A stretch of DNA of 64,000 nt from an uncultured Clostridium sp. (GCA_948470565.1 CAOKPF010000003.1:21-64020), one strand, 5' to 3'. Counted from the stretch's first letter, positions 3,462 to 15,450 are shown. A program made the numbers and translations. Notes: a model not told the origin generated them from the letters alone.

Positions 3462-3963
3462 CTACACTCTCCTTAAATATCTTAATGCTCTTTCTGTATG
3501 AAATGAGTACTGGTCAGTTAATTCTTTAAATTTAAGTTTATTCACAATCTCTGATACTGTAGATAATGAATCATTTACTTGCCACAGCAACGCAACAATA
3601 TCATCATCTGCAACAGGACCTATTACAACATCATATTTATTATCAATATTACATTCTAAATTATCTATATATTTAAACTTTCTATTTCTATTATTTAAAA
3701 TAAACTGTGCCCATTCTTCTGATGGCATACTTTTAAATTTTTTTATTCTAATATCACTATCTTTAAATATATTTTCATCTAATTCAAAGACATTAACAAA
3801 CGGTTTTCCTGTTCTTAATCTTCTTGTTGTTCTTACTGACATAAACTCAGCTTGTTGTCTAATTGTAGTGCAATAAAAGCCTTGTTCGAAAATCCTTAAA
3901 CTTTTTACACTTGTTTAAATCCACTTTATCTATTTTTACATTTGAGCCATGATATAAAATCAT
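3462..3963 (-). pseudogene. DUF3990-like gene interrupted by a 1-nt frameshift
   Basis: ATG at 3963 (ATGA overlap with upstream stop) gives MILYHGSNVKIDKVDLNKCKKFKDF, then stops. The other frame continues EQGFYCTTIRQQAEF into the 126-aa ORF 3462..3842. Frames differ by 1 nt near 3886-3891. Confidence 0.6.
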
Positions 3964-4184
3964 TGTATAATACCTCCATTTCCCTTGCATATTTGTATTA
4001 AATCTTCAATTGCATCATTTAAACTAACCGTATGCTCTGCCTCATAGCATTCATTTAAAAATTCTAATCCTTTATATTTCTTTAAATAATTGTATGCCTC
4101 ACTTCTCTTTATATCTTTTTGCTTTGCAAATTCATCAATACAAATAATTATATAATTTAATATTTTTATTTCTTTCTCTAACAT
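3960..4184 (-). CDS. DUF3791-like small protein
   Basis: 74-aa ORF; FAKQKDIKRSEAYNYLKKYKGLEFL...HT pattern typical of DUF3791. Confidence 0.7.
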   Translation of the reverse strand: MLEKEIKILNYIIICIDEFAKQKDIKRSEAYNYLKKYKGLEFLNECYEAEHTVSLNDAIEDLIQICKGNGGIIQ

Positions 4185-5507: not shown

Positions 5508-5700
5508 CGTTTATATTATATAATTATTATACACACTTGTCAAGTTATTTTTATATAAAAAAATAACTCATTTTTTTAACACTTTATTTTTATATATAAA
5601 AATTATTATAATATTTTTCGCTTTTTTTAAAATAAACGACAAGGTAATACATAAAAATTATAATTTAAAATATAATGTAACAAGTAAAAAAGGTGATTTT

Positions 5701-12661: not shown

Positions 12662-14062
12662 TCAATATGGTATAAAATATATGTCACCCTCTTTTTTATA
12701 AATATCTTTTGTAATAATAATACCATATTTTGTTTTACCAATCTTATTATCTTTATTACTTTCAACAAATTTTTTTATAACAGCTACATCAGACTTTTCT
12801 ATTTTGTTTGTGTATTTTACTTCTATTGGAATAATATCTATTTTTCTATCTAATATTATATCTATTTCCTCTTTTTTAGAATTTCTATAATAATATTCAT
12901 TATAGTTTTCTCTCTCACATATAAGGCGTATATCAAAATCAACCATAGATTCTATAATATGACCTGCTTCATTAGAATTAATTTCTTTTTTCTTTAAAAG
13001 ACTATTACAAATTCCATTATCCAATATACTTAATTTTTTGTTTGATCTTATTATTTTGCCAATATTGGTAGAATAATTTTCTAATACATTTATTAAAAAA
13101 GCCTGCTTTAAATAACCTATATAACTTATTAATGTTACAGTATCTATACCAAAATTTTTAGTCATTCCACTATATGAAAATGTTTGAGAATTATTATCTG
13201 CAATATAGTACATTAGATTTTCTAAAATTTTAGGACTTTTTATATTATACATTATTAGTATATCTTTATAAATTCCTCTTGTAATAATATCATCTGCTAA
13301 GTGTCTTTGCCAGATGCTAAGATTTTTTTCTTCAAAATATTCTGTATATCCACCTACCAATATGTACTTATTTAATATATCTTGAACTATTAATTTTAAC
13401 TCTTCGTTGTAATATATATATTCTAAATTTTTAAAACTTATTTCTGGACTATCAATATCAAATTTAGGTAAAATAATATCTTCCTTTTTTGAAGAATATG
13501 TCATATAAAAATTTAAAAACTGGTTAAATGTTAATGGCAGTACATATATATTTTCAATTCTTCCAAGTAATGATTCATTTGCATCTTTGAATAGATGAAT
13601 AAATGATGAACCTGTTACTATAAATTTGATATTATATTTTCTGTCAAAACAAATCTTCAAATAATTTTGCCAGTTTTTTATAAAATGAATCTCATCAATG
13701 AAAATATATACTTTTGAATGTAAGTTTGGCATACTTTCCATTAAAATTTCTTTAAAATATAATTCTATTATATCTGATAATTTATTGCTTTCATCAAAAA
13801 ACAAACTAGGATCATCGCCACTAAAAAATAATATTCTTTTACTATCTATATTTTTTACTTCTAACAAATAATTTATTACTTGGAAAATCAAAGTTGATTT
13901 TCCAACTCCACTAGATCCAATAATACTTAAAATTCTTTTTTCTTCTATTTTATCTATAATACTATAAAATTCTTCCCTCTTTCTTGATTGTAAAAATTGA
14001 TCGCTTATTTTTTCACTATTCCACCATATATTATTTGAAATTAAACTTTGCTTTATATCCAT
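12662..14062 (-). CDS. P-loop ATPase, AAA_14 + DUF4143 architecture
   Basis: 466 aa; Walker A GSSGVGKST, Walker B IFIDEIH, C-terminal EIDIILD...PIEVK nuclease-like core. Confidence 0.85.
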   Translation of the reverse strand: MDIKQSLISNNIWWNSEKISDQFLQSRKREEFYSIIDKIEEKRILSIIGSSGVGKSTLIFQVINYLLEVKNIDSKRILFFSGDDPSLFFDESNKLSDIIELYFKEILMESMPNLHSKVYIFIDEIHFIKNWQNYLKICFDRKYNIKFIVTGSSFIHLFKDANESLLGRIENIYVLPLTFNQFLNFYMTYSSKKEDIILPKFDIDSPEISFKNLEYIYYNEELKLIVQDILNKYILVGGYTEYFEEKNLSIWQRHLADDIITRGIYKDILIMYNIKSPKILENLMYYIADNNSQTFSYSGMTKNFGIDTVTLISYIGYLKQAFLINVLENYSTNIGKIIRSNKKLSILDNGICNSLLKKKEINSNEAGHIIESMVDFDIRLICERENYNEYYYRNSKKEEIDIILDRKIDIIPIEVKYTNKIEKSDVAVIKKFVESNKDNKIGKTKYGIIITKDIYKKEGDIYFIPY

Positions 14063-14207
14063 TTTTTACTCCTTCTTAATACATTTCTATTTATATTACA
14101 TTATTTTAACAACAACATTCAAGAAAAATATACAATAGTGTAAATTTTAGTATTTTTATGGTCAGGGGAAATTCATGAAATTTTCCCTGTTTTATGGTAA
14201 ACTAATA

Positions 14208-14236
14208 TTGACAAATAAAAATAAGTATTGTATAAT
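14208..14236 (+). promoter_or_regulatory. consensus sigma-A promoter driving a small non-coding transcript
   Basis: TTGACA (14208-14213), 17 nt, TATAAT (14231-14236); no ORF follows. Confidence 0.6.
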
Positions 14237-14242
14237 GTAAAT

Positions 14243-14360
14243 AACAAATAGGAAGTAAGTTACTTTGTATTTTTTTCTTCTATTTGTATTGAGTTAAAAT
14301 TATAATGTTATACATTGATAATCGAGGAGATAAAAGGCGAATTTTATCTTCTCATTTTTA
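14243..14360 (+). ncRNA. candidate ~118-nt sRNA (putative type I antitoxin)
   Basis: Bounded by the consensus promoter and a 12-bp-stem terminator (gaggagataaaa/ttttatcttctc + T-run, 14324-14360). Nt 14294-14323 are complementary to the start region of the adjacent peptide mRNA. Confidence 0.45.
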
Positions 14361-14392
14361 TGTATAAGATATAAGAAAATGAATAAAATAAT

Positions 14393-14420
14393 AATGACCC
14401 GTGGGCGAACACAGGTCATT
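14393..14420 (-). terminator. hairpin terminator after the small peptide ORF
   Basis: aatgacc c gtg ggcgaa cac a ggtcatt stem-loop 4 nt after the TAG, followed on the minus strand by a U-rich stretch. Confidence 0.5.
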
Positions 14421-14424
14421 AGAG

Positions 14425-14493
14425 CTAGTTGTCTTTACGTAATTCTTTTATAAGAATAATTAAAACAACTATAAAAATTATAACGTCATACAA
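14425..14493 (-). CDS. candidate 22-aa hydrophobic type I toxin-like peptide
   Basis: TTG start 6 nt after GGAGGTGA. Peptide MYDVIIFIVVLIILIKELRKDN has a TM helix plus a charged tail. Own promoter, SD-sequestering hairpin and terminator. Confidence 0.45.
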   Translation of the reverse strand: MYDVIIFIVVLIILIKELRKDN

Positions 14494-14497
14494 TGAT

Positions 14498-14520
14498 ATC
14501 ACCTCCTTTCGGATGGTGAT
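14498..14520 (-). promoter_or_regulatory. SD-sequestering 5' UTR hairpin
   Basis: Minus strand AUCACCAUCC-GAAA-GGAGGUGAU: 9-bp stem (one bulged A) with GAAA tetraloop enclosing the whole SD. Confidence 0.55.
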
Positions 14521-14523
14521 TTT

Positions 14524-14552
14524 ATTATACCAAATAAATTAATAAAAAACAA
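14524..14552 (-). promoter_or_regulatory. promoter of the small peptide mRNA
   Basis: Minus strand TTGTTT, 17 nt, TATAAT (attata 14524-14529). Confidence 0.5.
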
Positions 14553-14619
14553 TAGAGTTGAACAATAGTGGAGATAAGCTTTGTCGAATTAAATATATAA
14601 AATTACAACACAAATACTA

Positions 14620-15450
14620 TTATTTATTTTTAAAAGCTTCATATAATATAATTCCAGTAGCTACACCTACATTTAATGATTCTGCTGTATTAGACATTGG
14701 TATTTTTACAATCTCATCACACATTTCTAATATCTCATTACTTACACCATTTGCCTCATTTCCAACAACAAAAGCATACTTTCCATTTAAATCTATTTCA
14801 TTTATATATCTATTTGTATCTAAAGATGTGCCTATTACTTTCTTTCCACTTTTTTTTATAGTCTCAAATACAGGTTCTATATTATTTCCAGCCACATAAA
14901 CTATTTTCTGCCTTAATATAGCTGCCATAGTAGCTCTTAATACTTTTGGTGAATATACGTCTGCTGTTCCATTAATACATATAATTGTATTAACTAAAAA
15001 AGCGTTTGCACTTCTAATTATAGTACCTATATTTCCTAAATCTTGTACTTTATCAAGTATCAAAATATTAGAACTTTTATTATCTATAATCACATCTTCT
15101 ACTTCATATTTAGGTATTTTTAACACTGCAAGTATTCCTTGTGGTGTAATTGTATCTGTTACATATTCTAATACTTTATCTGATAACTCTACAAATTCTA
15201 TGTTGGTATTTTTATCATTTCTAAACTTATCTATTCTATCTAATATTTGTCTACCACCATTCAAATTTTCTAGTATAGTTTTAGAATAAGCGATAAACAC
15301 AATGTCTATCGCTTCTTTTAAATCTAAAATTTCATTTACAACTTTTATCCCCTCTAAATAATATGAATTATATTTTAATCTATTCTTTTTTTCATTAAGG
15401 GATTTTATATATTTAACTTTTGGATTAGTTTTACTAACTATAATATCCAT
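14620..15450 (-). CDS. TrmH/SpoU family RNA 2'-O-methyltransferase
   Basis: 276 aa; LDKVQDLGNIGTIIRSANAF and C-terminal SLNVGVATGI SPOUT motifs. Confidence 0.85.
   Translation of the reverse strand: MDIIVSKTNPKVKYIKSLNEKKNRLKYNSYYLEGIKVVNEILDLKEAIDIVFIAYSKTILENLNGGRQILDRIDKFRNDKNTNIEFVELSDKVLEYVTDTITPQGILAVLKIPKYEVEDVIIDNKSSNILILDKVQDLGNIGTIIRSANAFLVNTIICINGTADVYSPKVLRATMAAILRQKIVYVAGNNIEPVFETIKKSGKKVIGTSLDTNRYINEIDLNGKYAFVVGNEANGVSNEILEMCDEIVKIPMSNTAESLNVGVATGIILYEAFKNK

Follow-up and report, generated by a model that had tools for sequence, protein, structure and literature searches.

A candidate type I toxin-antitoxin-like cassette with matched small RNA and peptide start regions in uncultured gut Clostridia and their phages

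Introduction

In the par system of Enterococcus faecalis pAD1 (Fst/RNA I–RNA II), convergent transcription across DNA direct repeats produces RNAs that are complementary at the initiation site of the toxin (PMC7472228). A 5′ stem-loop holds the Shine-Dalgarno (SD) sequence until the antitoxin RNA is bound, and the interaction sites vary between systems so that each antitoxin is specific to its own toxin (PMC7472228). Peptides of the Fst/Ldr group share a signature in which a Trp is conserved where the helix meets the charged tail and the helix itself contains a P/D/S/T-xxx-G(C) motif (PMC7472228). Here we describe a locus at positions 14208-14552 of a 64,000-nucleotide stretch of DNA from an uncultured Clostridium sp. 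(GCA_948470565.1, CAOKPF010000003.1:21-64020), the whole of which is called the window in what follows. The locus probably is a type I toxin-antitoxin (TA)-like cassette of an undescribed family, in which a small RNA (sRNA) would repress the synthesis of a very short hydrophobic peptide.

Among the proteobacterial type I pairs, tisB/istR-1, shoB/ohsC and zor/orz have divergent genes, hydrophobic toxins of 26-29 amino acids and about 20-30 nt of complementarity between the two RNAs, and their sRNAs act on long processed 5′ untranslated regions (UTRs), at a standby site in the case of tisB. The Ibs toxins of Escherichia coli have 18-19 amino acids and are almost purely hydrophobic, and each Sib RNA is a cis-antisense RNA, encoded opposite ibs and fully complementary to it. 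The antitoxins of Clostridioides difficile are cis-antisense RNAs that overlap the toxin gene. The type I toxins of C. difficile have 34-59 amino acids, and the antisense RNAs, listed as 'AS' entries, are named after the toxin gene (PMC6563280). Some of these modules are prophage-borne and contribute to prophage maintenance, and others are CRISPR-associated (PMC6563280, PMC7699646). According to a 2019 review, type I TA systems of Clostridia are known essentially only from this species because homology searches fail on such short peptides (PMC6563280). In the bsrG/SR4 module of the Bacillus subtilis prophage SPbeta, SR4 overlaps the 3′ end of bsrG, promotes decay of the mRNA and remodels the SD helix at a distance (PMC3834814, PMC4152353).

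Results

The locus has a peptide gene on the minus strand and a convergent sRNA gene on the plus strand, and a segment of the latter, the pairing box, repeats the start region of the former (Table 1). An ungapped comparison of positions 14296-14320 with 14474-14498 showed 22 identities out of 25. A preliminary description, made by a model from the nucleotide sequence, had reported a longer repeat between 14294-14323 and 14472-14500, and recounting gave the same figures, i.e., 25 matches, four mismatches, two of which become G-U pairs, and one gap. The repeat is the sole match with three or fewer mismatches on both strands of the 64 kb, and shuffled sequences yielded 0.00 such repeats. Among local alignments to the start region, that of the box also scored highest, with 17.5 as compared to a maximum of 14.5 for 1268 control segments. 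The proposal that the sRNA pairs with an mRNA segment that begins at the 3′ edge of the SD, includes the start codon and ends near codon 7 was supported by cofolding, where the gain was about -22 to -24 kcal/mol (-21.6 to -23.8) and the duplex lay over the start region, with the predicted intermolecular pairs beginning at -7 relative to the start codon. RNAduplex, applied to whole transcripts and to the 45-nt start region, was discarded because unrelated segments scored equally through multi-helix artefacts with unlimited interior loops. Repeat counts and a matrix of cognate and non-cognate cofolds were used in its place. A comparison of the predicted duplex with chance had been set as a check in the preliminary description, and its outcome was favorable on both statistics, the repeat being unique against the shuffles and the cognate cofolds exceeding the non-cognate ones.

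The cassette was found in six versions, namely those of the window, of a Clostridia genome (L094) and of four phage loci (L120, L153, L168, which has the same allele as L171, and L169). Within each version the box and its own start region are 86-88% identical, while comparisons between versions gave 52-60%, a level close to the background for AT-rich DNA. In a 7 × 7 cofold matrix, the cognate gain was -17.8 to -30.9 kcal/mol and the non-cognate gain was -2 to -14 kcal/mol. When only the six independent versions were taken, the cognate mean was -24.6 kcal/mol and the non-cognate mean -5.4 ± 2.3 kcal/mol, and the correct assignment of sRNAs to toxins was the single best of the 720 permutations of these gains. 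Each cognate duplex is predicted to begin between -10 and -5 and to reach +15 or beyond, counted from the start codon. Column-based covariation counts were dropped because MAFFT lost the register of the hairpin arms and the duplexes carry allele-specific bulges. In the four phage alleles the sRNA promoter and 5′ domain are nearly identical, and downstream of these the differences in the box, the two terminators and the toxin gene go together. The phage alleles thus appear to constitute a natural cassette swap in which the specificity moves with the toxin.

The distribution of the cassette points to a mobile unit that is present or absent in phages and in a genomic island. Comparison of L153 with the related locus L149 revealed a clean indel of ~510 bp that contains exactly the module. 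The phage site is a hot spot between a DUF722-like late regulator gene and the terminase genes that holds intact alleles or is empty, as is the case in L162, L164 and L167; in addition, a decayed remnant with a 9-codon open reading frame (ORF) and part of the sRNA 5′ domain was found in L158 (1772-3016), and an unrelated insert of ~1 kb occupies the site in L159 (2436-3413). In the L094 lineage the module is within a small island (L094 41-1232; L115 4093-5273), located between ABC-2 permease and Ppx-GppA genes, that includes a DUF6652 gene and what is left of a truncated short-chain dehydrogenase gene (a fragment of 53-104 aa). Relatives in which the neighboring permease is 75-92% identical lack the island and have a DUF6019 gene or other genes instead. 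The three genomic contexts (window, L094 and phage) are unrelated. No co-oriented gene is found downstream of the module in L094 or in the phages, and therefore the module is self-contained.

Reading of the minus strand confirmed the promoter TTGTTT-17-TATAAT listed previously and added an extended -10 (TGg) to it. In the predicted fold of the 5′ end of the mRNA, the whole GGAGG (14506-14502) is paired in a hairpin of 9 bp with one bulged A. The preliminary description was right in that the entire SD is buried, but the 9-bp length of the stem depends on the transcription start: when this is placed by the +7 rule, the mRNA begins at A14517 and the stem has 6 bp. The 5′ arm of the hairpin, AUCACC-A-UCC (within 14498-14523), mimics the 3′ end of 16S rRNA. 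The complementarity of the arms reaches 3 nt upstream of the +7-rule start, and the AUC/GAU pairs of the window and L120 covary with AAC/GUU in L094. Since these extra pairs covary between alleles, the real mRNA start may be unusually close to the -10 element, i.e., closer than the +7 rule predicts.

The TTG start codon at 14493 is located 8 nt past the GGAGG. It is aligned with an ATG in every other version, which supports its role as the start codon in the window, and homologous ORFs begin at the same position in the five other versions, as expected if the TTG start and the 22-codon ORF had been correctly proposed. Three nucleotides separate the stop codon from the terminator, a 12-bp stem followed by a T-run that coincides with the hairpin previously placed at 14393-14420. 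The 138-nt minus-strand transcript folds with -42.9 kcal/mol (z = -6.3), a value equalled by 0 of 200 shuffles, and its 5′ UTR has ~24-36 nt. Trp, Gly, Cys and Pro are all absent from the window peptide, and a comparison with Pfam and NCBIfam gave no match at E values up to 10.

The convergent sRNA gene begins with the perfect TTGACA-17-TATAAT promoter at 14208-14236, which, as claimed, has no ORF behind it. It is the sole perfect promoter on the plus strand of the window. There are six of these promoters in the 64 kb as compared to 0.09 expected from shuffles, and they can therefore be regarded as selected signals. The other five, at 5515, 11168, 32424, 60908 and 62837, are all on the minus strand and presumably drive highly expressed genes or more small RNAs. 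The predicted sRNA, with its 5′ hairpin and a terminator with a 12-bp stem, was traced in the sequence with a length of ~117 nt, practically the ~118 nt first proposed, and its fold had z = -3.2. The terminator arms GAGAAGATA and TATCTTCTC are conserved in the window, L094 and L120. The sRNA has no conserved ORF; mechanical ORFs across the region are in different frames in different alleles. The 3′ ends of the two terminators, with stems at 14421-14392 (minus) and 14324-14353 (plus), are separated by ~20 nt. Comparison with Rfam gave nothing at the gathering score in the window, nothing at E values up to 1 across 14100-14650, and only sub-threshold chance matches in L120.

Table 1. Coordinates of the predicted features in the window and peptides of the six versions of the cassette
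Feature	Position	Strand	Sequence or description
sRNA promoter	14208..14236	plus	perfect TTGACA-17-TATAAT; from sequence
Predicted antitoxin-like sRNA, ~117 nt	14243..14361	plus	5′ hairpin (14244-14287), pairing box and terminator; ends placed from promoter and terminator
Pairing box	14291..14323	plus	diverged DNA repeat, in direct orientation, of the toxin start region; complementary to the mRNA as an opposite-strand transcript
sRNA terminator	14324..14361	plus	GAGGAGAUA...UAUCUUCUC, then AUUUUU; 12-bp stem at 14324-14353
Peptide-mRNA intrinsic terminator	14382..14421	minus	12-bp stem 14421-14392, then U-run
22-codon ORF	14425..14493	minus	MYDVIIFIVVLIILIKELRKDN; TTG start, stop TAG 14427-14425
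mRNA target site	14472..14500	minus	SD 3′ edge, through the TTG start, to codon 7
5′ SD hairpin	14498..14520	minus	AUCACC-A-UCC GAAA GGA-GGUGAU; from folding; anti-SD mimic
Toxin-side promoter	14524..14552	minus	TTGTTT (14552-14547), 17 nt, TGgTATAAT (TATAAT 14529-14524); from sequence
Peptide, window			MYDVIIFIVVLIILIKELRKDN
Peptide, L120			MVENIILIVVLIFFIRELKH
Peptide, L169			MWETIIMTVVLVVLVQELKKH
Peptide, L168			MAEAILFTVVLTILAKVLLK
Peptide, L094			MTELILILFLMIIFIKELNNKK
Peptide, L153			MEDVTTLLNAVAYVLCSLAILIKAIKKRY

The six versions share a common design. The toxin-side promoters have TATAAT, usually as TGnTATAAT, with an imperfect -35, which at the homologous position of the other alleles is TTGCTA, TTGTAT, TTGATA or TTGACT. 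The sRNA promoter, in contrast to these weaker -35 elements, is perfect and located in the same place in 6/6 versions. The 5′ hairpin that pairs the SD is predicted in all seven alleles folded, with -6.3 to -7.3 kcal/mol when the RNA is taken to begin at the +7 start, and it shows a compensatory change in L168 and L169, where GGAGG opposite U becomes GGUGG opposite A. The ORFs have 20-29 codons, and a terminator follows shortly past the stop in each version. This terminator is homologous in the window, L120, L153 and L168, with a compensatory change of C-G to U-A in L120. The sRNA genes of the family, for predicted RNAs of 74-164 nt, consist of the perfect promoter, a variable 5′ domain, the box and, directly 3′ of the box, the terminator. 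As in the window, the toxin and sRNA terminators are separate in the other alleles.

Alignment of the peptides from the six versions gave the consensus MxExIxxxVVLxILIKELxK, and the substitutions preserve the order acidic residue, hydrophobic run and basic tail. Five strain variants of L094 (L115-L119) have a 1-nt deletion that removes the stop, which results in a 27-aa product (…NNKKSKTKL) that ends within the terminator stem; they also have the substitutions L4F and I12T, and the TG of their extended -10 is missing as well. In L115, the module (3686-4026) is downstream of the ABC-2 permease gene.

The relatives were identified by pattern searches and through neighboring genes. The class pattern for the peptide gene required twelve NTN codons followed by a stop after a charged tail of fixed length, and in its first form it found nothing in viral contigs. 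A relaxed pattern gave 109 loci in representative genomes, a collection that does not include the source genome of the window, and among these loci only L094, from the uncultured mouse-gut Clostridia metagenome-assembled genome MGBC120553, combined an SD and a 22-aa ORF with a repeat of its own start region close by. A promoter/anti-SD/SD pattern led to L120, an IMG/VR phage contig with PHROG matches to a RuvC-like resolvase, NinB and a late regulator. Homologues of its neighboring regulator gene led to L153, L168 (L171 is the IMG/VR locus with the same allele) and L169, all at the same phage site. Viral scans with the first sRNA-terminator pattern and with a combined IKEL-plus-terminator pattern found nothing. 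A broader sRNA-terminator pattern gave 29 loci in viral contigs, with L120 as the sole family member, and the last peptide/SD pattern gave 17 loci in the viral scan with no new member. Profiles of the module run with nhmmer detected no further copy in the window or in any retrieved locus, and a BLAST comparison of the module with plasmid and phage records returned only short chance matches.

The window module occupies a gap of 557 bp between an AAA_14/DUF4143 gene (12662-14062, minus) and a SpoU/TrmH-like gene (14620-15450, minus), in agreement with the densely structured gap of ~560 bp reported initially; each sequence feature listed at that time was found at its coordinates and above chance. 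The source lineage of Clostridia has a GC content of ~26% and is poorly sampled. A TrmH protein identical to that of the window was found on one other contig only, which is itself identical, and the next homologues have 63% identity. In the closest TrmH relative (L170) there is no module downstream of trmH, where the gene set is other than in the window. The neighboring AAA_14 and DUF4143 ATPase has weak similarities to STAND NTPases, and its gene may be in the same variable region as the module. Directly upstream of the sRNA promoter, at 14163-14189 on the plus strand, there is a terminator-like hairpin, CAGGGGAAATTCATGAAATTTTCCCTG followed by TTTTATGG, without a preceding plus-strand gene; its 3′ arm and tail resemble the tail of the sRNA terminator (repeat D2, 76%). 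This hairpin could act as an insulator or mark the boundary of the cassette, or an antisense RNA that comes from the 5′ region of the AAA_14 gene could end there. Elsewhere in the window, the segment 30001-32000 has 35% GC as compared to ~25% in the remainder, and several spurious strong RNAduplex matches were located there.

Discussion

The sequence features of a type I TA system, a small hydrophobic ORF with its own translation signals, an adjacent RNA gene and complementarity above chance, were found together at this locus. The type I TA-like pair proposed at the outset, with a buried SD and a convergent sRNA, gained support from the six versions, their matched boxes, the cognate-specific pairing and the mobility. 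We assign a probability of roughly 0.72 to a type I TA-like cassette of an undescribed family. Our confidence is high that it is a small-peptide module repressed by an sRNA and moderate that the peptide is a bona fide toxin. In the mechanism that we propose, the minus strand would be transcribed into an mRNA of ~135 nt that encodes the hydrophobic peptide of 22 residues and its charged tail, and the anti-SD mimic at the 5′ end of this mRNA would cover the SD, damping translation. The plus strand would produce an sRNA of ~117 nt from a perfect consensus promoter that would keep it in excess. The box would then form an imperfect duplex of ~28 bp over the 3′ edge of the SD, the start codon and the codons up to about codon 7 (codon 5-8), blocking ribosome binding and possibly also acting as a substrate for RNase III. 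If the sRNA were lost or no longer made, the structured mRNA would be translated and the peptide would enter the membrane and arrest or kill the cell. The likely role of such a cassette would be to stabilize the phage or island that carries it, or to exclude phages.

Several points weigh against this interpretation. Both RNAs are known from sequence alone, their ends included, and it is from sequence that we infer transcription, repression by the sRNA, toxicity at the membrane and the biological role. The unbroken hydrophobic run of the peptide has 12 residues, which is short for a membrane span, and the tail seems not to be tightly constrained, given the loss of the stop in L115-L119. The peptide matches no curated toxin family in Pfam or NCBIfam, and the sRNA matches no Rfam family. 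Six versions were found in all, four of them from related phages, and a scan of JGI metagenomes with the first peptide-class pattern gave one out-of-frame chance match and no member. In addition, gene conversion instead of selection for pairing could in principle be what keeps the box similar to the start region.

Doubts about the peptide itself lead to an alternative in which the RNA pair is real and the peptide is not toxic. It would be a small membrane-protein 'moron' of a phage or island, for example one that modulates a membrane protein, excludes superinfecting phages or sets the time of lysis, with its synthesis tuned by the sRNA. All the evidence for the RNA-RNA pair fits this possibility equally well, the hydrophobic run is short, no known toxin family was matched, and the phage cassettes occupy a moron site that has the late regulator gene on one side and the terminase genes on the other. 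Nonetheless, we consider it unlikely. A buried SD and an sRNA over the start codon amount to a double safeguard, reinforced by an sRNA promoter that is perfect while the toxin -35 is weaker; moreover, the specificity is matched to the allele and the module is mobile in a present/absent manner. This combination of features is typical of type I TA systems and unusual for a harmless small protein (PMC7472228, PMC6563280). Instead of a plain addiction module, the cassette might also be a weapon that phages use, allele by allele, in conflict with one another or with the host. This idea is suggested by the interchangeable cassettes of toxin and matching box that related phages have downstream of an unchanging sRNA promoter and 5′ domain, at a hot spot that is empty in other relatives. 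We regard this as rather improbable. If it were true, the sRNA of a resident prophage would neutralize its own toxin allele only, a superinfecting relative with another allele, or a host copy like that of the window, would trigger or escape killing, and the family would be a diversifying RNA-based system of immunity and exclusion.

Other explanations do without a functional RNA pair. The box could be a dead copy left by a decayed tandem duplication, flanked by a fortuitous promoter and terminator; indeed, it is a direct DNA repeat that on the toxin strand reads as a broken copy (ATG TAT AAC ATT ... stop). However, a neutral relic would not hold 86-88% identity in each lineage while the lineages differ by 40-48%, a perfect promoter and a conserved terminator flank the box in 6/6 versions, and shuffling did not generate such repeats. 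A neutral duplicate is disfavored because box and start region co-vary in each version and swap jointly, and this very improbable explanation was rejected on the grounds of the per-lineage identity, the conserved flanking signals and the shuffles. Another explanation takes the ORF as a leader-peptide attenuator of the AAA_14 gene, which is on the same strand ~330 nt downstream, or the plus-strand RNA as a cis-acting leader. In favor of an attenuator, Ile, Val and Leu are abundant in the ORF, and a terminator comes directly after it. Yet L094 and all the phage alleles, in unrelated contexts, have no co-oriented gene downstream, in the window a convergent promoter and terminator stand between the ORF and the AAA_14 gene, and no alternative anti-terminator structure was evident in the fold. 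The leader role, for which we see next to no chance, was rejected since there is no co-oriented downstream gene in L094 or the phages.

Taken as a type I TA-like cassette, the family, which is found in uncultured gut Clostridia and in the phages of these bacteria, adds candidate toxins that are among the shortest (20-22 aa). The family also indicates that a par-type direct repeat read from both sides could work without a shared terminator, as judged by the predicted pairing. The natural allelic series, with its co-varying box and start region, is a ready-made compensatory-mutation experiment on RNA-RNA specificity, the six sequences can be turned into a profile for annotating modules in gut metagenomes and phage genomes, and the predicted orthogonal pairs of toxin and antitoxin RNA are candidate genetic tools.

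With regard to known systems, the preliminary description had attributed to the locus the architecture of tisB/istR, shoB/ohsC and zor/orz. This attribution did not stand, because those genes are divergent and the ones described here converge. The cassette resembles those pairs in having an adjacent, non-overlapping sRNA with limited complementarity, but its predicted duplex lies on the start codon and there is no sequence similarity. The Ibs peptides are comparable in size to the 20-22-aa peptides described here, but the arrangement differs from that of Ibs/Sib in its direct repeat. The C. difficile modules CD0956.2-RCd10 and CD0977.1-RCd11 come from the same host class, Clostridia, and their toxins also have a hydrophobic N-terminus and a charged C-terminus (PMC6563280, PMC7699646); compared by description, the present sRNA gene differs in that it does not overlap the toxin gene and would pair through a repeat. 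bsrG/SR4 shares the Gram-positive prophage origin and the sequestration of the SD (PMC3834814, PMC4152353), while the sRNA described here would cover the start codon directly.

By analogy, the closest mechanism is most likely that of par. In both cases the promoters are convergent, complementarity over the toxin initiation site comes from direct repetition of DNA read in opposite directions (here with a single repeat), and the SD is paired within the mRNA in a 5′ stem-loop (here a prediction). The peptides of both have a hydrophobic helix between a charged residue at the N-terminus and a tail that is also charged, the interaction sites show little conservation from one system to another, and the modules are found on mobile elements, phages included (PMC7472228, PMC8167048). 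The differences are nonetheless substantial. Unlike par, the cassette has no shared bidirectional terminator, as the window has two whose 3′ ends do not overlap; each allele has one repeat of 25-30 nt, compared to DRa plus DRb in par, and it adjoins the 3′ terminator of the sRNA and not its 5′ end. The sRNAs have 74-164 nt compared to ~40 nt, and the peptides 20-29 aa compared to ~33 aa. In no allele is there a Trp at the helix-tail junction, and the PxxxG-type motif of the Fst/Ldr peptides is absent from most of them. The separate terminators, the single repeat on the terminator side, the lack of the Fst/Ldr signature and the absence of a profile match place the cassette, as far as its sequences indicate, outside the Fst/par family. 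It would represent an undescribed family of peptide and sRNA that combines a par-like pairing principle with separate terminators.

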